64,000 nt of DNA from Bdellovibrionales bacterium (GCA_050250255.1 JBFWOZ010000004.1:43557-107556); one strand, 5' to 3'; positions 25,947 through 39,636 are shown, counted from the first letter of the stretch. The notes: generated by a model from the letters alone, not told the origin. Translations and numbers: made by a program.

Positions 25947-26291
25947 ATGACATTTAAATTTGAAAATGCCGACAGCTCTTTTGGAATCCTTGAAGTAGAA
26001 CCTTCTGAAGTTTTTGAAAACCTCAAAAACGTGAAGATTGTAGATGTAAGAACCACCGAAGAGTTTACCGATGAGCTCAACCACATTGAGGGCGCTGATC
26101 TCATTCCCCTCGACACCCTTCCAGAACAAATCGTTCAGCTGCCAAAAGAAGAGGCGATTGTATTTGTATGTCGTTCCGGCGGCCGCTCCGCAAGAGCCAC
26201 AGCTTTTGCATTAGAAAACGGCTTTGAAAATGTCTACAACATGCGCGGGGGCATGATGCTCTGGAACGACCTCGGCCTCAAAACAGAATAA
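25947..26291 (+). CDS. Rhodanese-like domain protein
   Basis: VDVR..EF...HIEGA, CRSGGRS and GGMMLW. Confidence 0.9.
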   Translation: MTFKFENADSSFGILEVEPSEVFENLKNVKIVDVRTTEEFTDELNHIEGADLIPLDTLPEQIVQLPKEEAIVFVCRSGGRSARATAFALENGFENVYNMRGGMMLWNDLGLKTE

Positions 26292-26301
26292 GAGCTCAAA
26301 A

Positions 26302-27675
26302 ATGCACCCAAACATCTTCGTTAACCGCACACTGAATCTTAAAAAAATTAAATACATTGGATTTGATATGGACCACACCTTGGTTCGCTATCATTCTAAA
26401 AACTTTGAAAAGCTCGCTCACACAACCCTCATCGAGAAGCTGATCAAAAACCTGAATTACCCGAAGGAGCTTAAAAAGCTCCCTTTTGCGTTTGATCGTG
26501 CGATTCGTGGGTTAGTGATCGACAAAAAAAACGGAAACCTTTTAAAGCTCAGTCGTTGGGGTGCCATCCGCATCAGCTACCATGGTACACAGAGAATTGA
26601 TTTCGATAAACAAAAAGAATTTTATAAGAGCACCTACATCGATTTACGAGATCCACATTACTCTTCTATCGATACCGCCTTTTCTATCGCCTTTGCCGTT
26701 CTCTACGCACAGCTTGTCGATTTTAAAGATAAAAATTTGGATGTTCTCCCTGATTACGAGAGTATCGCCAACGATTTAAATGCGAGTCTCGATGCCGCCC
26801 ATCGTGATGGCAGTTTGAAAAATGCGGTAGAGAAAGATCTCGCTCATTACATCAAAAAAGATGCCCAAACGGTGAAGGCGCTGGAGCGCTTTAAGAAACT
26901 AGGTAAGACACTTTTTGTTCTAACGAATTCCGATTTTTACTACACCAAGCTTCTTCTCGACTACGCGATCAATCCTTACTTAAAAGATCACAAGTCGTGG
27001 CACCAACTTTTTGAGTACACCTTTACTCATGCAAGAAAACCGCGCTTCTTCTTTGATAAGCAGGATTTCTTAAAAGTGAATATCAAAGACGGTTCTCTGA
27101 CCAATCACTATGGCCCTCTCGGACAGGGTGTTTATCAGGGCGGCTGTGCGAATGATTTTACAACCGGTCTCGGCCTCAATGGTGACGATGTTCTTTACAT
27201 CGGAGACCATATTTATTCTGATATTTTAAGAATCAAAAAAGACTGTAATTGGCGTACGGCTCTCGTGGTCGAAGAACTCGATTACGAAATCGAAAAGCTC
27301 AATAAAGCCCAACCCATTGACGAGAAAATCGCACAACTCATGGACGAAAAGGAACCGTTCGAAGACGAAGTGGTGAAACTTGTCACCTTGGCAAAAGAGC
27401 AAGGAAGAAAAACTCTCGACGATAAAAAGATCATAGCTCTTCAAGAAAAAATCAAAACGATTGATAAAAAGATCAGTCCCCTGATTCAAAAGCATGAAGA
27501 ACTCTTCAATCCTTATTGGGGAGAAGTCATGCGCGCCGGAAACGAAGAAAGCTACTTCGCCCGCCAGATGCAGAGCTTTGCCTGCATCTACATGGCGGAC
27601 ATTCTTCATTTCCTCAACTGCTCACCGCGCATTTACTTCCGCGCGCCTCGTCGACTCATGCCTCACGAGCTGTAG
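26302..27675 (+). CDS. HAD-IG 5'-nucleotidase (cytosolic cN-II-like)
   Basis: IFVNRTL, GFDMDHTL, TNS, KP.FF and YIGDHIYSDI. Confidence 0.9.
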   Translation: MHPNIFVNRTLNLKKIKYIGFDMDHTLVRYHSKNFEKLAHTTLIEKLIKNLNYPKELKKLPFAFDRAIRGLVIDKKNGNLLKLSRWGAIRISYHGTQRIDFDKQKEFYKSTYIDLRDPHYSSIDTAFSIAFAVLYAQLVDFKDKNLDVLPDYESIANDLNASLDAAHRDGSLKNAVEKDLAHYIKKDAQTVKALERFKKLGKTLFVLTNSDFYYTKLLLDYAINPYLKDHKSWHQLFEYTFTHARKPRFFFDKQDFLKVNIKDGSLTNHYGPLGQGVYQGGCANDFTTGLGLNGDDVLYIGDHIYSDILRIKKDCNWRTALVVEELDYEIEKLNKAQPIDEKIAQLMDEKEPFEDEVVKLVTLAKEQGRKTLDDKKIIALQEKIKTIDKKISPLIQKHEELFNPYWGEVMRAGNEESYFARQMQSFACIYMADILHFLNCSPRIYFRAPRRLMPHEL

Positions 27676-27678
27676 TCT

Positions 27679-28416
27679 CTATAGAGTTTTATAGAGGAAC
27701 ATAACGTAGTCATCTTGGCCAAAAAGTTCTAGCGCTCCAGCGAGCGCCGTAGGTTTTTGATCTTTGAGCTCTTTATCGAACTTGCTCTGCTTTAAGAGAT
27801 AAGAACATCCCAATGCCTCCATCGAATCATATGTGAAATCTCCTTCACACATCTGTGTCTTACGAAGAGATTCGAGTTGTTCGGAGTTTCTTTCGAGCAT
27901 GGAAATGGAAATAAACTTCAGCTCAGTTTCTTTCGTGAGTTTTTCACTCATTGTTCCAGCAAAGAGACGTGAAACGGTCTGAGTTGGTAAATAGAGAATC
28001 GCTCTTTCACCTCTATTGAAAACTTCTTGGAGCTGAGATTCAAGTGCCGCAAGATCTATAGGTTCAGCCAGGTTAACGACTCGAGCGTCTGAAAACTCGA
28101 GCGATTTTGCCGAAAAAATGGTCGAATAGTTTTGCCCATCACTCCGAGCCGTGCGTACAAAGGCTTTTAAAACTTGATCGTGTTGTGAAGATTTTGGGTC
28201 ATAACCTAAAAGCAATAAGTTCATGCGGAAAAGGCGCTGCCGGAGCTGCCGATAGGTCCAAAACCCCATATCCCCGGCCTGTTCAAAATGGGAGGGTCTG
28301 ATCACCCCAACCGACTTCGATTTCATTCCATAATTCGCCAAAAAGAGAGCTATCCCGATAAGGGTGAAAATAGGGATACTCCAGATGGCCATTTTCAGAA
28401 ATTTGGATGAATTCAT
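27679..28416 (-). CDS. Hypothetical membrane-anchored protein
   Basis: 245-aa ORF with an N-terminal TM helix. Confidence 0.6.
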   Translation of the reverse strand: MNSSKFLKMAIWSIPIFTLIGIALFLANYGMKSKSVGVIRPSHFEQAGDMGFWTYRQLRQRLFRMNLLLLGYDPKSSQHDQVLKAFVRTARSDGQNYSTIFSAKSLEFSDARVVNLAEPIDLAALESQLQEVFNRGERAILYLPTQTVSRLFAGTMSEKLTKETELKFISISMLERNSEQLESLRKTQMCEGDFTYDSMEALGCSYLLKQSKFDKELKDQKPTALAGALELFGQDDYVMFLYKTL

Positions 28417-28510
28417 GCCCCTTTAGTAACAGTCTCAAGTCTTTTTGGGAGCAGTTATTTTGACCTTGATCCATAGCATCAAGTATATAATTTACCTGAA
28501 TTAACTAGGG

Positions 28511-28606
28511 TGCTCCTGGAGCATGGACTTTTACTCTCCATAGTTTACTGCTATTTTATTCATTCATGCATTGAGCCTCAAAAACCAATGACATGCGTGC
28601 TGCACG
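28511..28606 (+). promoter_or_regulatory. Structured leader/operator region upstream of the pan/coa operon
   Basis: Palindromes TGCTCC-T-GGAGCA (28511-28523) and CGTGC-T-GCACG (28596-28606); hairpin CATGCATTG/CAATGACATG with a bulged A (28565-28595). Confidence 0.35.
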
Positions 28607-28643
28607 TTTAAGATTGTTTTTACTTTAAAGAAGGACTTGATCC

Positions 28644-29438
28644 ATGGGACAGGTACCAGTGAACAAAAACTCTTTTTCTTTTACTCCCTCTTACGGAATT
28701 ATTGGCGACGGTCGAATGGCCCAACACATGGCCCATTACTTTCGCTTACGAGAAATCCCATTTAAATTATGGTCCCGCAAACTGTCTCAAGTTTCGCCTC
28801 ATGAAGAACTTTTTGAGCAGGATATTCTTTTAGTTCTTCTTCGCGACAGTGCGATTGAAAATTTCATCGAACAAAATCCTGAGCTGCAAAAAAAGACTCT
28901 CATTCATTTCTCGGGAAGTCTGGTTGCCGAAAAAGCTTACGGTATGCATCCGCTCATGACTTTTGGAAATGAACTCTATGACCTGGAGACCTACGAACGC
29001 ATTCCGTTCGTGCTCGAAAAGGGACGTCAAAATTTTTCTGAATACCAATTTCAACAACTTTTTCCACGACTGAAAAATCCCCACTTTGAAATCTTGGCTT
29101 CACAAAAGCCGCTCTACCACGCTCTCTGTGTGATGGGTCAGAATTTTACCAACCTTCTATGGCAAAAGTTTTTCAAATCCATGAACGCCGAGTTTTTACT
29201 TCCTGAAGAAGCCCTAAAGCCTATCTTAGAACAAACGTTTATTAATCTTTTAAAAGATCCTTACAAAAATCTCACAGGCCCCATTGCACGTGGAGATACA
29301 AAAACGATTAAGGCCAACCTCGAAGCACTTCGTGATGATCCTTATTACGATGTCTATGAAGCGTTCCTCGCTGCCTGGACCAAAGAACAAAAAAAATCTC
29401 CACCCACTTACGTTTTTCAAAAGGAGATCTCACAATGA
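28644..29438 (+). CDS. Rossmann-like + DUF2520 protein, PanG-type ketopantoate reductase
   Basis: IIGDGR, HFSGS, HPLMTF, YHALCV..NF and LTGPIARGD; first gene of the pan operon. Confidence 0.8.
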   Translation: MGQVPVNKNSFSFTPSYGIIGDGRMAQHMAHYFRLREIPFKLWSRKLSQVSPHEELFEQDILLVLLRDSAIENFIEQNPELQKKTLIHFSGSLVAEKAYGMHPLMTFGNELYDLETYERIPFVLEKGRQNFSEYQFQQLFPRLKNPHFEILASQKPLYHALCVMGQNFTNLLWQKFFKSMNAEFLLPEEALKPILEQTFINLLKDPYKNLTGPIARGDTKTIKANLEALRDDPYYDVYEAFLAAWTKEQKKSPPTYVFQKEISQ

Positions 29439-30223
29439 ACGTCTTAGATTTTCTCCAGTATAAAAAAATAAATAAAAAAATATCGATGGTCACTTCCTAC
29501 GAAGCCTGGTCTGCAAAAATTATCGAAGCCTCCCCCATCGATTGCATTTTAGTGGGCGACAGCGTCGCGATGGTCGTTCACGGCTTCGACTCGACTTTAC
29601 ATGCGACTCCCGAAATGATCGCAACTCATGTAGCCGCGGTCCGAAGAGGAGCTCCTAAAAAATTCATCGTGGCCGACATGCCCTTTCCTTGGTTTCGAAA
29701 AGGAATTCCTGAAGCCATGAATTGTGTCGATCTCTTCATGAAGGCTGGTGCCAATTGCGTAAAAATCGAAGGCGTTATTGGACATGAAGATGTGATTCAA
29801 AATATCGTTCAGTCGGGCGTACCTGTGATGGGCCACTTAGGACTCACGCCTCAAAGCATTCATGCTTTGGGTGGATTTAAAGTGCAGGGCCGCAGTGACG
29901 AAGCCGCACGCTCCATTATTGAGCAAGCGATTAAACTCGAAGACCTCGGTGCTTTTTCCGTCGTACTTGAGTGCGTGCCACAAATGGTTTCTAAAACCAT
30001 CACTAAATCTCTTGAAATTCCTACGATTGGAATTGGTGCCGGTATCCACGTGGATGGCCAGGTGCTCGTTCTCCAGGATCTTCTCGGCCTCAATGGAGAG
30101 TTTCATCCAAAATTTTTAAAAAAATATCTCAATGGTTCTGAAGCCGTAATTAAATCCCTCGCAAACTACGACACAGAGGTTAAGGGCTCTCTCTTTCCGA
30201 CGGAAAAGGAAAGTTATGTCTAA
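29435..30223 (+). CDS. panB: 3-methyl-2-oxobutanoate hydroxymethyltransferase
   Basis: ILVGDS, ADMPF, VKIEG, GHLGLTPQ and TIGIGAG..DGQVLV. Confidence 0.97.
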   Translation: MNVLDFLQYKKINKKISMVTSYEAWSAKIIEASPIDCILVGDSVAMVVHGFDSTLHATPEMIATHVAAVRRGAPKKFIVADMPFPWFRKGIPEAMNCVDLFMKAGANCVKIEGVIGHEDVIQNIVQSGVPVMGHLGLTPQSIHALGGFKVQGRSDEAARSIIEQAIKLEDLGAFSVVLECVPQMVSKTITKSLEIPTIGIGAGIHVDGQVLVLQDLLGLNGEFHPKFLKKYLNGSEAVIKSLANYDTEVKGSLFPTEKESYV

Positions 30224-30992
30224 TCCCCTTCTTCGTCTTGTGGAATCTGTTTCTGAAATGCGTGAACTCTCGGCTCTTTATCGAGCAGAACAGTTAAGTA
30301 TTGGTTTTGTTCCTACCATGGGTGCTCTTCACGAAGGTCATCTTTCTCTTTTAAAGAAAAGCTTAAAGGAAACCGACGTCACGATTTGTAGCATCTATGT
30401 GAACCCCACCCAGTTTAACGATAAAAAAGATTTTGAAAACTACCCGATCACTCTCCCTGAAGATCTTGAAAAATTAAAATCTCTCGGGGTGCAGATTGCG
30501 TTTTGTCCTTCCTACCAAGATATGTATCCAGATGGTTATAAATATCGCGTGAGCGAATCAGATCTTAGCCAAATTCTCTGCGGCGAACATCGTCCCGGAC
30601 ACTTTGATGGGGTTCTCACTGTAGTCATGAAGCTTTTTAATATTACTCAGCCACATAAAGCTTACTTCGGTGAAAAAGATTACCAACAGCTTTTGCTTAT
30701 TAAAAAAATGGCGAAAAGCTTTTTCATGAATGTGGAAGTCATCGCTTGTCCCACACTTCGTGAAGAGGATGGACTCGCTATGAGTTCAAGAAATCGCCTT
30801 CTTCCCTCGGAGGATCGACGTCTCGCTCCTCAATTTTCGAAACTTTTAAAGTCTTCTCAATCTACAGAGAAAATTTCATCCGAATTAGAAAAACTAGGTT
30901 TTAAAGTAGATTACATCCAAGAGGTTTTGGGCCACCGCTTTGGAGCAGTCCGACTAGGCCAGGTGAGGTTGATTGATAATGTCCAAATCTAA
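30216..30992 (+). CDS. panC: Pantoate-beta-alanine ligase
   Basis: VPTMGALHEGH, RPGHFDGV, FGEKDYQQ, GLAMSSRN and RLIDN. Confidence 0.97.
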   Translation: MSNPLLRLVESVSEMRELSALYRAEQLSIGFVPTMGALHEGHLSLLKKSLKETDVTICSIYVNPTQFNDKKDFENYPITLPEDLEKLKSLGVQIAFCPSYQDMYPDGYKYRVSESDLSQILCGEHRPGHFDGVLTVVMKLFNITQPHKAYFGEKDYQQLLLIKKMAKSFFMNVEVIACPTLREEDGLAMSSRNRLLPSEDRRLAPQFSKLLKSSQSTEKISSELEKLGFKVDYIQEVLGHRFGAVRLGQVRLIDNVQI

Positions 30993-31578
30993 ACCCACCC
31001 GCATTCTTTTCGCACTGACTGGTTCCATCGCTTGCTTTAAAGCCTGCACACTCGTTTCGCGTCTCGTACAAAATGGGTTTGAGGTTCAATGTGCGGTTAC
31101 GGATTCGGCTCTCCAATTTGTAGGCGAAGCCACTCTCGAAGGCCTCACCGGAAATCCTATCTTTAAAAACGTCTACGAAAATAGCCGCATGATGGATCAT
31201 ATCCATCTCAGCAAGTGGGCTGATGCGATGATTGTATGTCCAGCCACAGCAAACATGATCAATAAATTGGCGACAGGGTTAGGAGACGATCCCGTTTCGA
31301 CACTTGCCTTGGCACATGACTTTCAAAAACCCCTCTGGATTGTGCCAGCCATGAACCAAAATATGTTTTCTCATCCCGCAACCCAACAGTCTTTGAAAAC
31401 TCTTAAATCTTGGGGCGCACGCGTGATCGATACCGACAACGGGCACCAAGCTTGCGGAGACGTCGGGCCTGGCCGAATGAAAGAACCCGAACAAATATAC
31501 TCTTTAATTATGCAGTGGAACTTAATGAAAAGTGGGAGCGGCCCTTCACCGCTTGTCACCAGTGAGGTAGAAGTATGA
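30979..31578 (+). CDS. coaC: Phosphopantothenoylcysteine decarboxylase (stand-alone CoaC)
   Basis: TGSIA, HIHL, PATAN, PAMN..M and ACGDVGPGRM.EP. Confidence 0.9.
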   Translation: MSKSKPTRILFALTGSIACFKACTLVSRLVQNGFEVQCAVTDSALQFVGEATLEGLTGNPIFKNVYENSRMMDHIHLSKWADAMIVCPATANMINKLATGLGDDPVSTLALAHDFQKPLWIVPAMNQNMFSHPATQQSLKTLKSWGARVIDTDNGHQACGDVGPGRMKEPEQIYSLIMQWNLMKSGSGPSPLVTSEVEV

Positions 31579-32240
31579 AGATTTTAATAACGTCTGGGGC
31601 TACTCGAGAGCCGATCGATCAAGTACGATTTATTACGAATATGAGTACCGGCAAAACCGGGGCTAGCCTGGCAGAGAAATTAGCTCGCCAAGGTCACAAG
31701 GTGACTTATCTTCATGGACAAGGTGCACACATCCCAGATGGTGCTGCCGAAACTGTCGAATACAGCACTTTTTCTGATTTAGATCAGAAGCTACAATCTC
31801 TCCTTTCAAAAACAACTTTTGATCTAGTTTTGCATGCTGCAGCTGTCAGCGATTTTTCTGTGGCTTCCGTTCGTAGCAGTAAATCGAACATTGAATTGGA
31901 TGCTCATTCCAAGATCAATTCAGCTGAAAAGCTTCAGGTTGAACTGAAGCCTAATTTTAAAATTCTCAATCAAATTAAAGACTATTCCCAAGAACGTCAC
32001 CCTCTCGTTATAGGATTTAAATTAACTTTCACTGAATCCGAAGGCGAACAACAAGAAGCCATCAAGCGGCTTTTTGATGGTGGTAGTGTCGACTACGTGA
32101 TTCACAACGACTTAAAAGATATGAGAGAGAAAAATCGACATATTTTTAGAATTCACAATGAAAGTGAATTTTTAAGTGTTGCCGATTCCGTGGAGACTTT
32201 AGCCAACAAAATATCAGAAATTGCGGAGGCCCGTATATGA
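31575..32240 (+). CDS. coaB: Phosphopantothenate-cysteine ligase (stand-alone CoaB)
   Basis: [30 protein letters not shown] and GFKL. Confidence 0.9.
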
Positions 32241-33007
32241 TCATGACTCTGGATGTAGGAAACAGCCAAATTTATGGTGGAGTATTCGTTAACGATAAAA
32301 TGAAACTTCAGTTTCGAAAAACCTCAAAAATGGGTTCTTCCTCCGATGAGTTTGGACTCTTTTTAAGAAGCGTTTTAAGAGAAAACGACATCGATCCAAA
32401 GATGATCGTGCAGATTGCCTTTTGCTCGGTCGTGCCTGATATCGTCCACTCCTTAAGAAATGCCTGCAAAAAGTATTTCAATTTAAATCCCTTTATTCTT
32501 CAAGCTGGCGCCAAAACGGGTTTAAAAATTAAGTACCGTAATCCTGTAGAAGTAGGAGCTGATCGTATTGCAAATGCCATCGGAGCAGTAAACCTTTATC
32601 CAGGTAAAAACTTAATCATTATCGATTTCGGAACGGCGACCACTTTCTGCGCCATTACCGCCGAGAAAGATTACCTCGGTGGATTGATTGTACCGGGCTT
32701 GAGATTATCTATGGAAGCGCTTGAAGCACAGACGGCAAAACTCCCTGCCGTGGAAATCGTGCCCGCTGCCGAAATCATTGGCCGCTCTACAGTTGAAAGC
32801 ATTCAATCGGGACTTTATTTTGGTCACTTAGCGATGGTAAGGGACATCACCCAACGTATTAAAAAAGAGCATTTTGAAAATAAAAATACTGTCATTATCG
32901 GAACAGGCGGTTTCTCACGACTTTTTGAAAAAGAAAAAGTTTTTGACGATCTCAACCCTGATCTTGTTTTGACAGGACTGAAGCTTTCACTAAAGATGAA
33001 CACCTGA
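32237..33007 (+). CDS. coaX: Type III pantothenate kinase
   Basis: LDVGNS, SVVP, VGADR, DFGTATT, GGLIVPG and TGG. Confidence 0.95.
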
Positions 33008-33014
33008 GGTTGAT

Positions 33015-33368
33015 ATGCAAATTACAATGTTGAAATCTAAAATACATAGAGCCACTGTTACCGATGCGGATCTTAACTACGAAGGCTCTATTTCAGTTGA
33101 CCCGGCACTCTTAGATGCCGCCAAACTGATTCCTTTCGAAAAAGTCGAAATTTATAACGTGAACAACGGTGAGCGATTCGCGACTTACGTTATTCTAGGC
33201 AAAAGGGGCGAAATTTGTCTTAACGGCGCTGCAGCTCGACTGGTTCACCGTGGCGACCTTGTGATTATCGCGGCCTTCGCGAGCTTCACACCTGAAGAAG
33301 CCATGAAGCACAAACCAACTCTTGTTTTCGTAAACGAAAAAAATGAGATTAAAGATTGGAAGGGTTAA
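33015..33368 (+). CDS. panD: Aspartate 1-decarboxylase
   Basis: [17 protein letters not shown] self-cleavage site, NGERF.TY and NGAAAR. Confidence 0.97.
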
Positions 33369-33530
33369 TACCATAACCAACTGGCTTAAAAGTTAACTGC
33401 TTTATTTTATAAATTATTTTTATTTACTGTAAACAACTTAGACATCCCTTCTCCTCATTAATTTGATTAGAAGAAATTCGCCCGTGTAAACAATAAATGG
33501 TTGACATACAGCCCTGTAACATTTAAAAAT

Positions 33531-34253
33531 ATGTCACACATGGCCACAGAACCAATTAGCAATAACATCCAAACAGTTCATCTCAATAAAGATAGTTTAG
33601 ATATTGATTATGTTTACGAGCTTTCTACGCTTCTGAACCAGTTTTGTGAGTTGATCAAAAAAAAGAACATTTATCTTATTCCTACTACAAGTGAGTTCAG
33701 TCTTTATCGAAAACTAAACCCAGAAAAACAACGCGCCATTTATGATGGCTTCCTCGCATATTATACTGGCTGCCTAGGAGCTTTGAATTCTGGTGCCCAT
33801 CTAGATGATGACAGAACATTAGCTTTGTGGGTTCTTAAAAGTCTTAATTGGCGCTTTCATCCAGACTTATTTGGTCATTTGACAAAAAATGATGTGATCG
33901 AAATATACAACAAAGATTCTGTCCAAATCTTTCGTACATTCAATTTTTTCAATCTTATTAGCTACACACTTGAAGAAATACTTTGTTATGAATGGTGGGA
34001 GCTCTATCGACGACCCGAATTTATTCAAAAGGAATTAGTAACTCAAGGTACACGTATCTTAGAGAAAAAAGTCGAAGAAACTCTCTTTAATTTCGCTCCC
34101 AATCATGAAGTAGAAGAAATCTTCTCCGTTAAAAGAAACATTGCTGAGATTTCTGAAAAGCTTGTTTCTCCACCCTACTTACCGTCGGGACAAATTACTG
34201 GATTTATACACGCATTTGAAATCGTAAACGTACGTCCCGCTCATCCTAATTAA
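33531..34253 (+). CDS. Hypothetical protein with a PAS-like C-terminal region
   Basis: DVIEIYNKDSVQIFRTFNFFNLISYTLEEILCYEWWELY resembles the PAS core pattern. Start 33531 or 33540 (the track's TTG at 33501 is part of a TTGACA box). Confidence 0.55.
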   Translation: MSHMATEPISNNIQTVHLNKDSLDIDYVYELSTLLNQFCELIKKKNIYLIPTTSEFSLYRKLNPEKQRAIYDGFLAYYTGCLGALNSGAHLDDDRTLALWVLKSLNWRFHPDLFGHLTKNDVIEIYNKDSVQIFRTFNFFNLISYTLEEILCYEWWELYRRPEFIQKELVTQGTRILEKKVEETLFNFAPNHEVEEIFSVKRNIAEISEKLVSPPYLPSGQITGFIHAFEIVNVRPAHPN

Positions 34254-34263
34254 GAGGTCCAAA

Positions 34264-34566
34264 ATGGCAAAAAAAACTGGTGCATCTACAGAACTATCTA
34301 ATTACCTTTCAGACAAACGCGAGAAATCTAACCTTTCCCAGCTAGACTTAGGTACACAGCTTGGATTTACATCTGCTCAGTTTGTATCCAATTGGGAGCG
34401 CGGCATCTCTCTCCCTTCACCATCTTGCTTACCTAAACTTGTCAGCCTTTTAAAGCTGGATAAACGAAAATTGATCTCTTTAATTCTCAAGCATCAAGAG
34501 GAAGTATTTTTGGCCAAATTTAAAGAGGCCGAAAAGACTCCTAAAAACACTAAGCGACTTGCTTAA
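34264..34566 (+). CDS. XRE-family helix-turn-helix regulator
   Basis: REKSNLSQLDLGTQLGFTSAQFVSNWERGISLP. Confidence 0.88.
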   Translation: MAKKTGASTELSNYLSDKREKSNLSQLDLGTQLGFTSAQFVSNWERGISLPSPSCLPKLVSLLKLDKRKLISLILKHQEEVFLAKFKEAEKTPKNTKRLA

Positions 34567-35209
34567 GCTGACCCTTAAGAGCCTGCTGTTTCAATCTCGT
34601 CAATAATGACTCATAAAGGGAACAGCTAAGCTCTAAGTTGGCAACAATCTGTTGGGTCTCTTCCCAGCCTATATTTTTGAGAATTTCAAACGCATGAGTA
34701 AAGTGAGCAACATCCACTTCGGCATGCAGATCTAAAAACGTGGTGCAATTTTTAGCTTTTAAATGTTTATTTACTGCCTTTGAAATATCCCCCGCTTTTT
34801 TTACTGCGAGTCCTTCAAAACAAAAAGAGTACCCGAAGTGAGCAAAGGGATGAAGATAATCAATAGCGTAATATTGAGAACGAACAATGGCTTGAGTTTC
34901 AGGTAATTCAGGAAAATCTGTCGTCTCATAACCAATATTCTTTAAGTCGTCAGCTGCCATTCGATCATGACCTTTTTCTTCTCGAAAATGATTTACTAGA
35001 TCGTAGTGAATATCGTTTCGCTCAAACGGCATGCGCGCCGATGTCAAAGCAATGAAACGAGTGGTATGCTTTACTAGATGGAATGTTTGCACGAGCCACG
35101 CTGCATAAGCTTCCTTGAGATGCCATGGAAATTCATCGCAAGATTTCATGAGCTGAGACAAGTTTTTCTCATAAATCTTCTTCCACTCTTCAGAAGAAAA
35201 AGTTTTCAT
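34550..35209 (-). CDS. Heme-oxygenase-like di-iron enzyme (iron-containing redox enzyme; PqqC/TenA/CADD fold)
   Basis: Helical protein with H..EE.GH, FEG and H.EVD..H ligand motifs; GGAGG RBS before ATG 35209. Confidence 0.75.
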   Translation of the reverse strand: MKTFSSEEWKKIYEKNLSQLMKSCDEFPWHLKEAYAAWLVQTFHLVKHTTRFIALTSARMPFERNDIHYDLVNHFREEKGHDRMAADDLKNIGYETTDFPELPETQAIVRSQYYAIDYLHPFAHFGYSFCFEGLAVKKAGDISKAVNKHLKAKNCTTFLDLHAEVDVAHFTHAFEILKNIGWEETQQIVANLELSCSLYESLLTRLKQQALKGQLKQVA

Positions 35210-35220
35210 AATCAACCTCC

Positions 35221-35910
35221 TTAGGCTGCTTTTTTTTCGTATATTCTTTGATCCATCATACTTATTCGTCCGCTCCATAACATTTTGACCATGCGATTTA
35301 AATTTTCGTCAGGGTGCCATTTAATTTGGTTTTTAGAACAAGCGATAAGTTGACAAGGAGTATTGTGTTTTACAATTCCTGTTTGAACAGCGTAATAACC
35401 CCAGCGATATGCCATTTCATGGATTTTTACGTCCTCTCTTACTATAGCTACAGCCGCATCTACATCTAGACTTCTAAAGAGCTGTATCTGCAGACCAACA
35501 ATCACCTCAGCTATGGAGATTTTCGTAGACCTGGCAATTTTTCTCCATGATGGAGCAACCGTCAGATACTCTGCAGAAACACAGCTTGTGACTCCACGGG
35601 CACGAAGGCTTTCAATATATTGTTGATTAAATGACGATTGGAAATAAGGGTGCTCTGTCGCCGAGTCCTGCTCAAGATGAAACAATGTAGAGCTATATAA
35701 CCCCACAATCTCCTGATCATGAGTTAAAATACCTATGTAATTTTGCCTGAAAAAATCCTCGATTTTTATAATCGATTGTGCACCGTTGTCTTTATAAACT
35801 TTCTGCCAAAAACTTTTCCAATAATGAAATGTTTCATTGTGGAGCGCCATATCTACGTCATAATTAGTACAATTACCAGGTAGTATGTAATGCTTTAAAT
35901 TCATGCTCAC
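35221..35910 (-). CDS. GNAT-fold acyltransferase, N-acyl amino acid synthase (FeeM)/LuxI-like
   Basis: EYLTVAPSWRK motif-A-like segment, AVAIVR.D..H.M..RWG; size and layout match acyl-amide synthases. Confidence 0.5.
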   Translation of the reverse strand: MSMNLKHYILPGNCTNYDVDMALHNETFHYWKSFWQKVYKDNGAQSIIKIEDFFRQNYIGILTHDQEIVGLYSSTLFHLEQDSATEHPYFQSSFNQQYIESLRARGVTSCVSAEYLTVAPSWRKIARSTKISIAEVIVGLQIQLFRSLDVDAAVAIVREDVKIHEMAYRWGYYAVQTGIVKHNTPCQLIACSKNQIKWHPDENLNRMVKMLWSGRISMMDQRIYEKKAA

Positions 35911-35942
35911 GCTCTCATATAGATAAATAAACTATATTTAGT

Positions 35943-35969
35943 TGATCGACAGACCTGCCAATTACTTAA
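35943..35969 (-). promoter_or_regulatory. Sigma28-like promoter candidate
   Basis: Minus strand TTAA-N15-GTCGATCA upstream of the 35910 gene. Confidence 0.4.
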
Positions 35970-36054
35970 TAAGCCTAAAACAATTATTTTTTAGATGCGC
36001 TGCTTACAGCACAGCCCTTGGTCCCCTTTATTAAAGGCATAGAAATGGCGAAAA

Positions 36055-37155
36055 ATGAGCATGTTAAAGCGTAAAATATATGAGATTTTAGACCGTGGAC
36101 TCAGCAAAGCTGTCTTAAATTTAGAAAAAATGCGTTGGCACTTAGGCACTCCATCGCCGATCGTGGAGGCAGTTAGTAACCGAGCCATTGTGTCTAGAGC
36201 CATTTTTACTCTCGTAAAGCTCAAGATTGCTGATCAGCTTCTTATTAAAAATCAAACCTCTTATCAGCTAGCGAATACACTTAATTTTAATACCGAGAGC
36301 TTAGACAGATTTCTACAATTCCTAACAACCTACGGAGTTCTTCGACGTCATAAGGATGAGACTTTTAGTCTCACACCAACGGCCCGTCTTTTTCTCACTA
36401 CGTCTTCGCCGAATAGTCTTACAAACTGGGTGGAGTACGCTGGGTCAAATTGGCTTTGGGAGTCTTGCTCTGAACTCACAAAATGCATACAACAAGGGAA
36501 ATCTTCATTTCAAACTCGTTTTCAAAAGGAATATTTTCAATGGCTAGAAGAAAATCCGGAAGCGAGCCAAATTTTTAATCGGGCTATGCAAAGCCGTACG
36601 CGAAGTCTTAATATGGCAATTTTAGGTCACTACGATTTTTCTTCGTACAAAAATGTCGTGGATATTGCTGGTGGACACGGTGGATTTTTGTGTGCTGTTT
36701 TAGAAAAATATAAAGAAGCGAAAGGTGTTCTCTTTGACCAAAAGCACGTCATTGGAGAAATGGCGAAAGATGCCAAGTTAGAATCCATAAAATCTCGTAT
36801 TCAATGTGTGGGTGGTGATATTCTCTCTTCCATCGACGCTCAAGGTGATCTTTTTGTTCTACGGCATATCCTACACAATTGGAGCGACGAAGACGTAAGT
36901 CGAATTCTGAAAAATTGTCGCGTGGCTATGGGATCCCAAGGTCGCCTACTGATTATAGAAATGCTCACCGGCGAAAAACATGATCATTTTGCACGCAGTA
37001 TGGATATGGTAATGCTACTTCTCTTCGGTCCAGCCAAAGAAAGATCTTCTCGTGAATTTGAACAGATTTTGGAAACTGCAGGTTTAAAATTAAATCGAGT
37101 GATCGAAACTGGCAGTCCGATGAGCATTCTGGAAGTTGTTCCTAAAGCCGCTTAA
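36055..37155 (+). CDS. SAM-dependent O-methyltransferase (Methyltransf_2, dimerisation domain)
   Basis: VVDIAGGHG, GVLFDQ, VGGD, LRHILHNWSDE and ER...EF..IL..AG. Confidence 0.9.
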   Translation: MSMLKRKIYEILDRGLSKAVLNLEKMRWHLGTPSPIVEAVSNRAIVSRAIFTLVKLKIADQLLIKNQTSYQLANTLNFNTESLDRFLQFLTTYGVLRRHKDETFSLTPTARLFLTTSSPNSLTNWVEYAGSNWLWESCSELTKCIQQGKSSFQTRFQKEYFQWLEENPEASQIFNRAMQSRTRSLNMAILGHYDFSSYKNVVDIAGGHGGFLCAVLEKYKEAKGVLFDQKHVIGEMAKDAKLESIKSRIQCVGGDILSSIDAQGDLFVLRHILHNWSDEDVSRILKNCRVAMGSQGRLLIIEMLTGEKHDHFARSMDMVMLLLFGPAKERSSREFEQILETAGLKLNRVIETGSPMSILEVVPKAA

Positions 37156-37799
37156 GAAACGATGTAAACATCAAATCGTGAGAGCTTTCCTTCCTGAGAA
37201 TGGCGCGGTTTCGAAAGTTTTGGCGCCCACAGAGGCCTTTTTAAAACTACTCGCTTTTTTGATTTTTCAAGAGCGAGTGTTAAAAGCTGAGTCGTATCTT
37301 CGTCGGTTTGCTCGAAAGTTTTTTCATCCACATGAAGGAGCTCACGAAGAACCTGCATTTCCTTTTTGGGAAGTGCAGAGGATTCTCGCTGTGGGTACAT
37401 AGGATCTAAGTAAATGGCGTCAAACTTCTTCTCTTTGAGTTTTTGCAGAAACTCAAAGCTGTTCTCATTCAGATGTTCCAAAAATTTCAAGGCTTCCACT
37501 TTTCCATTCGATCTTGCAATCGCATCTTGTACGAGAAGAAAAAGAGATTTGTTTTGCTCTAAAGCGGTCACGTGATGACCTTTTAAAGCCATGAGAAATG
37601 CATCTTTTGCTAGACCCGCTGTTGCATCTAACACGAATGGAGAGTCTTTGAGCGAGCCTAGAGCCTTGAGAAGAGGTTGCTTTGAAAGCGGTTGCATCTT
37701 CAGTTTTCTCAATTGAAGTTCAAAATCCAAACGAATGCCCTCTAGCTCAAGGCCTTCATCTGTTTTGCGCAGCTTTAATTCTTCTTTTCTCTCACTCAT
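37152..37799 (-). CDS. rsmJ: 16S rRNA m2G1516 methyltransferase (RsmJ-like)
   Basis: VLDATAGLAKDA, YLDPMYP and RVVLKRP. Confidence 0.85.
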   Translation of the reverse strand: MSERKEELKLRKTDEGLELEGIRLDFELQLRKLKMQPLSKQPLLKALGSLKDSPFVLDATAGLAKDAFLMALKGHHVTALEQNKSLFLLVQDAIARSNGKVEALKFLEHLNENSFEFLQKLKEKKFDAIYLDPMYPQRESSALPKKEMQVLRELLHVDEKTFEQTDEDTTQLLTLALEKSKKRVVLKRPLWAPKLSKPRHSQEGKLSRFDVYIVS

Positions 37800-37852: not shown

Positions 37853-38518
37853 GTGGAAAAATCTTTTGGGACTTCTGACGGAAAAATTGGTGAATACGCT
37901 GAAAAGGTCTTCCAGCCTGTCGATGCCATTTTAGAAAAAGTGGTAGAACGCACCCAAAAAGAAGGCATTCCCCTTATTCAAGTGGGTGGCATGGATGGAC
38001 TTCACTTAGAAGTTCTCACGCGAGCCTTTGGTGCAAAAAAGATTGTAGAGATTGGTACTCTCGCTGGCTACTCCGCGATTTGCATGGCAAGAGCCCTCCC
38101 CGAAAATGGAAAAATTTATTGTTTTGAAGTCAGTCCCGAAAGTGCGGCCATTGCCCAAGAGCATTTCAAAATGGCAGGCGTCGAAAAGAAAACAGAAATT
38201 CATGTAGGTCCTGCTCTAGAAAAGCTCTACGCCATCGAAAACCAAGGGCCCTTTGATCTTGTTTTTGTCGATGCAGATAAAGGGAACTACACGGAGTACA
38301 TGAAATGGGCCGAGAAAAATCTGCGTATTGGCGGCGCCCTCTTGGCCGATAACACGTTTGCCTGGGGTCTTATTGCTGATGAATCGATCACACCTGAACA
38401 AAAGCCTTCCGTGACCGCTCTAAGAAAATTCAACCAAGCCGTGGCGGATAGCCCCCGTTTTAGGTCGACGATTCTACCGACAGGAGAAGGCCTCACTCTC
38501 GCTGTGAAAATCTCCTAG
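37853..38518 (+). CDS. O-methyltransferase (Methyltransf_3, caffeoyl-CoA type)
   Basis: VEIGTLAGYS, FDLVFVDADK and ADN. Confidence 0.88.
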   Translation: MEKSFGTSDGKIGEYAEKVFQPVDAILEKVVERTQKEGIPLIQVGGMDGLHLEVLTRAFGAKKIVEIGTLAGYSAICMARALPENGKIYCFEVSPESAAIAQEHFKMAGVEKKTEIHVGPALEKLYAIENQGPFDLVFVDADKGNYTEYMKWAEKNLRIGGALLADNTFAWGLIADESITPEQKPSVTALRKFNQAVADSPRFRSTILPTGEGLTLAVKIS

Positions 38519-38641: not shown

Positions 38642-38679
38642 TTCCTCCAAACCATATCAATGATTCTTTGGAGGAATAC

Positions 38680-39636
38680 ATGCGTTTAAAGTGGAATTTA
38701 TCTTTAGCTTTGGGACTTATTCTTTTGAGTCACTTAGCGATGGCCCAGTCAGCTTTCAAACCCGCTGATATGAGTAAAGCCACCTCTGCCCTCCGTACAG
38801 CTTGTGACAACAGCCGGCATGACATGACTCAGATGGTTTATCAGCAGCATGCCTCTCCCCTCAGCCAACAATTGAATTTTCTCTTGTCGGTTTTAACTCC
38901 CTCTGAAAAATCCTTTCTTGAAAACTATAACGTGAATTTAGAAAAAGACGTTGAGGTCAGATCTACGGAGACCCTGGCTAAACTCAAACCACTAATGGAG
39001 AGTTGGAAAGAAAGAGTGGCTTCCAAGGGCATTCAAACTGAAATCGAAAAAACTGGGTATTCTGTACAATGGTGGAATGTTGAGCCAAAGAATCCTAACG
39101 CTCGTCCTATGGGCGGTAAGCCTGCAGTAAAAATTGTTAAGGCGGTACAGGATATGCTCGTCGCAAGAATCAGCCTAAGATACGATGCAGATATTACGAA
39201 GCCAACTAATGGATTCAGCAAAGAATTATCTTTTGAGTGTGATCGTGGAGATTTGTGCACGTCCCCTCTCTCAACAATTGAGATGAGCGATTTCATCGAA
39301 CAACAAATGCCTTTAGTTTGCCAAACACTCAAGATGGAGGACTTGCGCGAGCAATTCACAAAGCAAACTGGATTTCCGTTAGAGTGCAAAGACACTGTTA
39401 TGTCTTGCCAAAAAGGGATCAAAGCTCTCATTAGCGTTGCTCAAGATATCAAACTTTTAAAGACTGTCGCGCCGATTCTTTTACATACAGACAATCAAGT
39501 TTCTGAAATTTCTCTCTCAACGAATCCAAATCAATACAGAACTTCGACCTCCAATGCGCAATACTTCGCACATCCAAATACGAATAAGAGATTGAAATTA
39601 AAGATTGAACAAATCAATCGTGGGGATATTTACTAA
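38680..39636 (+). CDS. Secreted hypothetical protein
   Basis: GGAGG RBS, signal peptide ending AMA, six Cys. Confidence 0.65.
   Translation: MRLKWNLSLALGLILLSHLAMAQSAFKPADMSKATSALRTACDNSRHDMTQMVYQQHASPLSQQLNFLLSVLTPSEKSFLENYNVNLEKDVEVRSTETLAKLKPLMESWKERVASKGIQTEIEKTGYSVQWWNVEPKNPNARPMGGKPAVKIVKAVQDMLVARISLRYDADITKPTNGFSKELSFECDRGDLCTSPLSTIEMSDFIEQQMPLVCQTLKMEDLREQFTKQTGFPLECKDTVMSCQKGIKALISVAQDIKLLKTVAPILLHTDNQVSEISLSTNPNQYRTSTSNAQYFAHPNTNKRLKLKIEQINRGDIY

Follow-up and report, generated by a model that had tools for sequence, protein, structure and literature searches.

We analysed a 64,000-nucleotide (nt) stretch of DNA from a Bdellovibrionales bacterium, here called the window, which belongs to a genome (G000) of 3.09 Mb that is 99% complete and that its homologues in named organisms assign to Bdellovibrionota, and in it a block of five genes flanked by panD and rsmJ. 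The block brings together a predicted acyltransferase, a predicted di-iron oxidase, a putative receptor and a helix-turn-helix (HTH) regulator, and it represents a single instance of a four-gene cassette found repeatedly in the Bdellovibrio lineage. Its five open reading frames (ORFs), whose presence, strands and arrangement were all checked in the sequence, are as follows.

33531-34253, plus strand: PAS-like gene, 240 amino acids (aa), or 237 aa from the ATG at 33540; without a Pfam family
34264-34566, plus strand: XRE gene (HTH_3, E 1e-7)
34550-35209, minus strand: heme-oxygenase-like di-iron oxidase (HDO) gene (PF14518, E 2e-18)
35221-35910, minus strand: GNAT-like gene, with no match in Pfam
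36055-37155, plus strand: O-methyltransferase (OMT) gene (PF00891, E 1e-36; also PF08100)

The ORF and Pfam checks confirm the layout and strands given in an earlier note on this DNA, which had also described the block as AT-rich and as inserted between panD and rsmJ. The base composition agrees with that description, the GC content being 38.6% as against 43.8 +/- 1.7% in 2777 same-sized windows of the genome, which places the block in the lowest 0.6%. The position between panD and rsmJ stands as well, but a simple insertion is not supported: in G401, the only genome of the same family, rsmJ is followed by the genes of window 25947-27675 on the opposite strand, so that the block lies within a rearranged segment. 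Misassembly is unlikely, judging by contigs of run X1, possibly the source of this DNA, which cover the block without differences, and of X2, which bridge both junctions, although the two come from the same study and are not independent support.

The GNAT family is present in 124 of 401 genomes of the phylum, with all 26 genomes sampled from genus g9 among them; the PAS family is present in 140 of the 401. Working from the best downwards through 150 GNAT matches listed, with some near-duplicates skipped, gave 100 regions of up to ~12 kb each, which with the window make 101 GNAT loci. HDO is found in 83 of them, PAS in 78, XRE in 59 (a count that includes a few distant HTH matches) and all four in 47, the members being kept while the gene order is shuffled; the conserved co-occurrence of these four genes, set as a check in the earlier note, is therefore borne out. 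A set of 110 modules, defined by stricter distance limits and with 10 of its members reached through PAS matches, holds PAS in 86 and XRE in 63. A separate, HDO-centred search of named genomes returned 79 loci. The 43 closest of these, 12 of which are at least 80% identical to loci from the other searches and several of which are cut by contig ends, carry GNAT in 37 cases, PAS in 38 and XRE in 18; in the 36 more distant HDO-centred loci, GNAT, PAS and XRE were found in none.

From its modelled structure, the GNAT product is predicted to be a GNAT-fold acyltransferase that resembles LuxI and FeeM. The AlphaFold (AF2) model, built on a 23-sequence alignment, has a predicted local distance difference test score (pLDDT) of 92.4. 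Foldseek puts EsaI and FeeM at ranks 1-5 (EsaI, E 3e-6), with LasI and BjaI following among ordinary GNATs, and VIA superposes the model on RpaI (Z 15.3, root-mean-square deviation [rmsd] 3.1 over 192 aa) and on FeeM (2g0b; Z 14.7, rmsd 3.2 over 177 aa), so that the FeeM/LuxI-type fold expected in the earlier note was indeed recovered. In the Atlas the closest named clusters are FeeM (PF21926, TM 0.66) and Acetyltransf_5. Moreover, only 1 of the 144 family members has the coenzyme A (CoA) P-loop motif and 143 are without it, a loss that is a trait of carrier-protein-dependent GNATs (PMC11685415). At the sequence level none of 23 members matches PF00765 (LuxI) at E 0.05 or PF21926 (FeeM), and hhalign of the family against 8 FeeM-like proteins gave a probability of 0.3, that is, no profile similarity. 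The N-terminal motif of LuxI is R-x3-F-x5-W, and this pattern occurs in 0 of the 144 members. A search of the whole genome with PF00765 found no match, but its positive control gave none either; the sole PF21926 match in the genome is on C25. Pfam and NCBIfam scans placed neither the GNAT nor the PAS protein in a family, and PDB sequence searches with the two profiles gave chance matches only. Hence the GNAT, lacking a sequence-level tie to LuxI or FeeM, belongs to a separate, unclassified family, of ~1017 clusters at 50% identity. A word-index search returned no GNAT homologue, which is a sensitivity artefact given that the family was found by other searches. In L157, L159, L162, L200, L204 and L205, cassettes otherwise complete have a distant second GNAT-like subfamily (E ~1e-6 to the family profile) in the synthase slot. 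The 242-aa neighbour of an Acidobacteriota HDO (L214), considered as a possible family member, is not detectably related.

The HDO is predicted, by family and ligands, to be a di-iron oxidase, its identity to known enzymes being too low for assigning the reaction. Its ligand set consists of 3 histidines and 3 carboxylates (E78, H81, E132, H162, D166 and H169). Across 55 homologues E78, H81, H162, D166 and H169 are invariant and H74, E77 and E132 are at least 90% conserved, and in 83 sequences the six ligands are 98-99% conserved, in line with the ligand pattern recognised in the earlier note; a three-His/three-carboxylate motif is described for di-iron HDOs (PMC13108848). PDB sequence matches are to 3dde (E 8e-20), to MboA (E 8e-10) and, at only E 0.01, to UndA. 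The closest characterised sequence relative is thus MboA, a desaturase that acts on a peptide (PMC13185094).

The place of the HDO in the cassette is interchangeable, being taken by an HDO, a membrane desaturase or a VAO-type flavoprotein. Among the 110 modules, 80 have HDO only, 9 HDO and desaturase, 10 desaturase only, 3 a VAO/PCMH-type flavoprotein, and 8 no oxidase within 1.5 kb; seven of these last eight are also without PAS, and in L116 the HDO lies just past an inserted kinase. Fusions occur as GNAT-HDO in L127 and HDO-methyltransferase in L174. The desaturase-like UndB decarboxylates, and FeeG is a VAO-type flavoprotein. The flavin oxidases FeeG, CndG and HyeB convert N-acyl tyrosine to an enamide, and TyzC is the desaturating partner of an N-acyltransferase (PMC11959600; PMC10404671). 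That three unrelated oxidase families share one slot suggests one kind of reaction, C=C formation in an N-acyl amide. Occasional cassette neighbours, an AMP-binding ligase, class I methyltransferases, a flavin halogenase-like protein and an acyl-CoA dehydrogenase (L034, L035, L063, L123 and L125), may diversify the product.

For the PAS gene, the model points to a stand-alone putative receptor. It has a pLDDT of 91.5 and shows an N-terminal helical region (~aa 27-104) followed by a C-terminal PAS domain (~aa 118-235), and the protein has no membrane-spanning stretch. The top Foldseek and VIA matches listed are all PAS/LOV, the best with Z 10.1 and an rmsd of 2.6 over 115 aa, and among them is the RpfR PAS domain with Burkholderia diffusible signal factor (BDSF) (6dgj, Z 8.0); the PAS fold was another of the earlier note's checks, and AlphaFold, Foldseek and VIA agree on it. 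PAS_9 is weakly matched by 3 of 65 family members, and MLTR_LBD has no Pfam match in the same 65, while MltR is absent from the fold-search rows, which does not exclude a likeness. The XRE gene, of an HTH_3 subfamily with the consensus QFISNWERG, starts 10 nt after the PAS gene, and more generally an XRE lies at most 600 bp from 59 of 124 PAS ORFs, 51 of these 59 being co-directional. Forty further PAS loci comprise 11 with GNAT, 8 XRE-PAS pairs without enzymes and 21 with PAS alone, where being without enzymes means that none lies within about 4 kb (29/40), and a genome may hold up to 7 PAS matches. Changes of oxidase type are tracked no better by PAS clades than by GNAT clades (15 vs 16 changes, a comparison without a shuffle control). 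A histidine kinase abuts 10 of the 24 PAS-less modules vs 11 of the 86 that contain PAS, these genomes being kin. The PAS-less GNAT-HDO loci L099, L107, L108, L111, L118 and L120, and L115 and L116, have two types of kinase of ~470 aa. In one type the N-terminus is hydrophobic and probably multi-pass; in the other the N-terminal region is soluble, has no Pfam match and is HNOB/V4R-like by eye. Such kinases are candidate alternative receptors; the notion that they are fused PAS homologues was rejected.

The OMT, a class II S-adenosylmethionine-dependent enzyme divergent from the GNAT-HDO operon, is a different matter. It is present in only 2 of the 101 GNAT loci, which rules it out as a core gene, and the methylation that the earlier note had made part of the core pathway is not borne out. 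The window GNAT groups (FastTree support 96) with that of G135, a genome from a different family. The G135 cassette carries these five genes in identical order between other flanks, and the best match of the window OMT among 400 other genomes is the OMT of that cassette. Hence the OMT belongs to this version of the cassette and not to its core.

Upstream of the PAS-XRE operon, TGTAAACAA does occur twice, as had been reported, starting at 33428 and 33485, with TTGACA at 33501; this 9-mer has 28 copies in the genome, including another close pair at C5:2441 and C5:2464. TGTAAACA, tried as an operator, was ruled out, being found in only 3/111 and 4/153 upstream regions. The conserved element is a longer dyad, TAAAyA-N5-TrTTTA, which stands before both operons and which, on sequence grounds, is a putative operator for the XRE protein. 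TAAA-N9-TTTA is enriched upstream (29 vs 3.8 expected, and 23 vs 5.0 expected) and is found in 41 of 235 module regions, whereas intergenic regions elsewhere have it in 11 of 411; counts for spacers of 5 and 10 are raised too. Applied to 31 held-out loci, a dyad matrix detected sites in 19 of 55 module regions vs 6 of 60 controls, with shuffles giving a mean of 5.4 and a maximum of 9. The dyads of the window, scored with a matrix trained without it, and the associated promoters are these.

33408-33428, no strand: operator-like dyad upstream of the PAS-XRE operon; 16.6 bits, the best site in the whole genome
33485-33530, plus strand: weak dyad (33485-33505, the palindrome of the earlier note) over a sigma70-like promoter, TTGACA-N18-AAAAAT; 8.6 bits, with 548 genome sites as high
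35922-35942, no strand: operator-like dyad directly after the -10 box of the FliA-like promoter that precedes GNAT-HDO; 15.6 bits, with 6 genome sites as high
35944-35969, minus strand: sigma28/FliA-like promoter of the GNAT-HDO operon, TTAAG-N15-TCGATC; score 8.5 of 11
35975-35995, no strand: operator-like dyad directly before the -35 box of that FliA-like promoter, where the upstream region is common to the operon and the OMT; 14.4 bits, with 17 genome sites as high

The four best dyad sites of the window are all inside the block, at 33408, 35922, 35975 and, within the PAS gene, 33581. The palindrome seen earlier over the TTGACA box is present, but as a weak instance of the dyad and not as the conserved operator; the sigma70-like promoter matches 10 of 12, and a scan for sigma70 promoters and terminators gave no excess over shuffles. 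In the same way, the sigma28-like promoter proposed for the enzyme operon exists as a site, but its score makes it a weak match to the published FliA promoter, TTAAG-N16-CCGATA (PMC3627812). FliA-like sites scoring at least 9 are found at 21 of 94 GNAT operon heads vs 40 of 467 controls. Since two dyads flank the FliA-like promoter, one of them over the expected start, the arrangement would suit a repressor. Other high dyad sites of the genome (C1:2050, C5:23487, C13:20837, C52:15570, C45:9515 and C45:9532) precede, with names assigned by eye, a flagellin-like gene, rpsJ, a pair of response-regulator-like genes and one gene of 546 aa, and could be a regulon or AT-rich noise.

Information on when the genes are expressed comes from B. 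bacteriovorus; for the window DNA itself no RNA data set was listed, which does not bear on its expression either way. In strain YOA24 (L172) the gene order is trx-PAS-GNAT-HDO-x-slt-rodA, and the HD100 table of PMC3627812 has this order with matching sizes and a mapped Bd2465 promoter nearly identical to that of L172. By order, sizes and promoter, Bd2465 maps to GNAT, Bd2464 to HDO and Bd2467 to PAS. Bd2465 and Bd2464 form one operon whose mapped start site is marked 'yes' for FliA, with attack/growth values of 6883/145 and 5645/14 reads per kilobase per million (RPKM), while Bd2467 stands at 16/1626, ~100-fold higher in growth phase (PMC3627812). Bd2496 and Bd2497, which follow a surface-antigen gene like the XRE-PAS pair of L133, L144 and L145 and are of similar sizes, are by gene order probably a cassette-type XRE-PAS pair, with attack/growth RPKM of 134/1746 and 2325/6524 (PMC3627812). 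The data of PMC2797640 go in the same direction with smaller changes: after prey entry Bd2465 falls to 0.6 and Bd2464 to 0.77, and Bd2467 and Bd2496 rise ~twofold in prey-independent growth, Bd2467 being unchanged at prey entry. As reported in these two sources, then, the HD100 enzyme operon is shown at the transcript level to be attack-phase specific and the PAS gene to be growth-phase.

Taken together, these results incline us, by a small measure, to the reading that the cassette makes a small oxidised N-acyl amide, produced by attack-phase cells and read by the stand-alone PAS receptor via the neighbouring XRE; the acyl transfer, the oxidation, the ligand binding, the coupling of PAS to XRE and the role between cells are all parts of it that we infer. 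The GNAT would transfer an acyl chain, probably from an acyl carrier protein (acyl-ACP), to an amino acid or amine, and the HDO would oxidise what results. The most likely outcome is an enamide or dehydro-amide, formed through either oxidative decarboxylation or desaturation; elsewhere a membrane desaturase or VAO/PCMH-type flavoprotein stands in for the HDO. In the window copy, a hydroxyl would be methylated by the OMT, as would suit a head group of the tyrosine type. The product would then enter the PAS pocket, and the PAS protein would alter the binding of XRE to the TAAAyA-N5-TrTTTA dyads, which flank the enzyme promoter and the PAS-XRE promoter. With the enzymes transcribed in HD100 from a FliA promoter in the free-swimming attack phase and the PAS genes in the growth phase, the molecule would carry information from cells that hunt to cells that grow, or from one stage to another within a single cell. 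A wider proposal, which we advance tentatively and which may well prove wrong, is that the Bdellovibrionota have their own cell-to-cell signalling: hunting cells would release lineage-specific oxidised N-acyl amides, varied by swaps of HDO, desaturase, flavoprotein and methyltransferase; a two-part receptor of helical-PAS protein and XRE would read them in growth-phase cells; and solo receptors would hear other predators, tuning division, prey exit or prey-independent growth to predator density. The signalling island of the earlier note thus keeps its GNAT and PAS folds and its four-gene co-occurrence while losing methylation from the core. Its comparison with quorum sensing is helped by the enzyme-less receptors, the shared dyad and the phase-dependent expression, but not by the autoinduction pattern of LuxI/LuxR, since the phases are opposite.

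Several observations weigh against the signal-and-receptor reading. On the side of the enzyme, ordinary GNATs are level with RpaI and FeeM in VIA (1xeb, Z 15.6; an insect aaNAT-like protein, Z 15.3), and the sequence-level tie to LuxI or FeeM is lacking. On the side of the receptor, the PAS fold is generic, an XRE is missing within 2.6 kb in 27 of the 86 modules that contain PAS (the main locus of B. bacteriovorus included), and the only XRE-PAS fusion, L158, is a single draft-genome case that resembles a lost stop codon. GNAT and PAS distances are weakly correlated (rho 0.22; within-family permutations averaged 0.09, and 1 of 200 reached 0.22). The dyad occurs also at 12 of 26 GNAT and PAS loci that have no XRE nearby, so that any action there would fall to an XRE encoded elsewhere, and it is AT-rich, as are the module regions in comparison with controls (62% vs 58%). 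The genomes are kin, so that the counts are not of independent events. Lastly, the expression of enzymes and PAS gene in opposite phases is unlike a LuxI/LuxR feedback loop, and fits a life-stage relay or a shut-off better than classical autoinduction.

We consider somewhat unlikely, though far from negligible, an explanation in which the product is a bioactive metabolite of the attack phase, aimed at prey, competitors or grazers, and PAS and XRE provide local feedback or self-protection, for example if PAS bound the product, or else the synthase, and so turned the pathway off during growth phase. The attack-phase specificity of the HD100 enzymes speaks for it, with the PAS gene high exactly while the enzymes are off, as does the fact that PAS accompanies GNAT more often than XRE does (86 vs 63 of 110). 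There is a precedent in the PAS-like domain of RpfR, which inhibits the signal synthase RpfF. N-acyl tyrosines are antibacterial (PMC11959600). However, a pure pathway inhibitor would not need the 29 of 40 further PAS loci that are enzyme-less within ~4 kb, 8 of them with XRE, kinases stand beside many PAS-less modules, and no recurring exporter or resistance gene was found in the cassette neighbourhoods. Distinctly unlikely, in our estimation, is that PAS-XRE responds to an outside or metabolic cue (redox state, an acyl chain or a fatty acid derived from prey, for instance) and governs the enzymes without sensing their product. Many PAS copies are solitary, GNAT-PAS co-divergence is weak and the PAS genes are biased to the growth phase, when prey lipids are abundant; yet PAS remains adjacent to the enzymes through many rearrangements, and GNAT and PAS are strongly diverged even within one genus, as expected of matched signal-receptor pairs.

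Two further explanations concern other substrates of the enzymes. The N-acyltransferases of aminolipid synthesis are GNATs, with tailoring by enzymes of the desaturase type. The cassette could accordingly produce or alter a membrane lipid that contains an amino acid, comparable to the ornithine or glycine lipids and located in the attack-phase envelope, with the regulators controlling envelope remodelling; Acetyltransf_5 among the nearest named Atlas clusters and the desaturase swap in the oxidase slot would fit. We think this very unlikely in view of the patchiness (124/401 genomes) and high divergence of the pathway, of VAO-type and OMT partners that suit small aromatic products, and of a scan of 107 neighbours and the recurring clusters that found no O-acyltransferase. 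Hardly any weight can be given to the idea that the substrate of GNAT and HDO is a protein or peptide, or that the genes form a toxin-antitoxin-like unit with XRE. Some HDOs, such as MboA, do act on peptides, and XRE has weak matches to NCBIfam antitoxin models; but all of these are far below the cut-off, neither a precursor peptide nor a ligase recurs among the neighbour ORFs of at least 90 aa, the GNAT belongs to a different operon from the XRE, and GNAT is often without XRE.

If the cassette does make a signal and its receptor, it would work like a LuxI/LuxR pair joined to tailoring of the FeeM/FeeG type, while failing the sequence tests for LuxI, LuxR and FeeM alike. With LuxI/LuxR systems (EsaI, LasI, BjaI, RpaI) it shares a GNAT-fold synthase beside a putative ligand-binding regulator and a dyad before the synthase, and its enzyme-less receptors resemble the LuxR solos described in PMC13419125. 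Unlike those systems, its receptor is a separate helical-PAS protein with XRE and no LuxR, its GNAT is without PF00765, it has an oxidative tailoring slot, and the synthase and PAS gene of HD100 are in opposite phases; PF03472 (the LuxR Autoind_bind domain) was not found in the 99%-complete genome in a search whose positive control was found in E. coli. The N-acyl-tyrosine enamide pathways (FeeM/FeeG, Hye/CndG, TyzA/TyzC and the stieleriacines) likewise proceed in order from an N-acyltransferase to an oxidase, in their case a flavin-dependent oxidative decarboxylase or desaturase (PMC11959600; PMC10404671; PMC7293339). Three cassette modules even have a VAO/PCMH-type flavoprotein in that place, and the GNAT shares the FeeM-like fold and the loss of the CoA P-loop; it lies, however, outside PF21926, the usual oxidase of the cassette is an HDO, and no cognate PAS-XRE pair is described in the accessible parts of the three papers just cited. 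The HDO has the three-His/three-carboxylate ligands of its family (UndA, BesC, SznF, CADD, MboA, PolF), with MboA the nearest characterised member, but the accessible part of PMC13108848 lists no HDO that acts on a GNAT-made N-acyl amide. N-acyl-cyclolysine (ACL) of Bacteroidota (PMC13419125) and leudiazen (mgo) of Pseudomonas are also phylum- or genus-specific signals other than acyl-homoserine lactones, though they belong to other lineages and are likened here by lineage-restricted signal type alone. One-component XRE-PAS regulators of the MmyB/MltR type are known, as are the PAS receptors RpfR and VqmA. The former too combine XRE with a PAS-like ligand domain; in the cassette, by contrast, the parts are separate genes in all but one locus, there is an extra helical region, and 65 members gave no MLTR_LBD match.

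A literature search, with subscription-only papers and bioRxiv supplements outside its scope, turned up neither an account of the cassette nor any reference to Bd2463-Bd2467 in a main text. The word 'quorum' is absent from a 2026 review of Bdellovibrio biology (PMC13689555), as is 'Bdellovibrio' from a 2026 perspective on quorum sensing (PMC13419125). The cassette is found also in named B. bacteriovorus strains, and Bd2464, Bd2465, Bd2467 and Bd2496-Bd2497 are annotated only as hypothetical. Since HD100 is genetically tractable, sensing by a predator of its own density, or mutual sensing between predators, becomes directly testable there, a matter of consequence for the use of predators as living antibiotics. 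In addition, two unclassified protein families are defined (the GNAT alone with ~1000 clusters), and the HDO enzymes are likely to gain a new class of substrate.

Some minor observations concern the surroundings. In comparison with G401 (L254), window 25947-37799, from rhodanese and HAD nucleotidase genes to rsmJ, is inverted; it holds the cassette and, at 29435-33368, a panB-panC-coaC-coaB-coaX-panD operon in which CoaBC is split into two genes. ORFs of 245 and 322 aa at window 27679-28416 and 38668-39636 have no Pfam or NCBIfam match. A second O-methyltransferase (Methyltransf_3; window 37853-38518) adjoins rsmJ in G401 too, has a homologue ~2 kb from the cassette of G135, and is probably a host gene. 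Elsewhere in the genome, at L250 (G000:C25:6813-13369), an HDO gene is divergent from one that encodes 577 aa, including a true FeeM domain (PF21926), and behind the latter come genes for a GAF-adenylate/guanylate cyclase and for a membrane histidine kinase; this may be a second acyl-amide signal system with a different output. Outside the Bdellovibrionota, related HDOs adjoin FeeM-family GNATs, four with PF21926 matches (L215, L241, L247, L249), or FeeM-like ORFs (L230, L234, L242, L245), with an MMPL protein next in Frankia (L230) and a gene of similar size at that place in Mycobacterium (L234), so that GNAT with HDO looks like a wider uncharacterised biosynthetic pairing.

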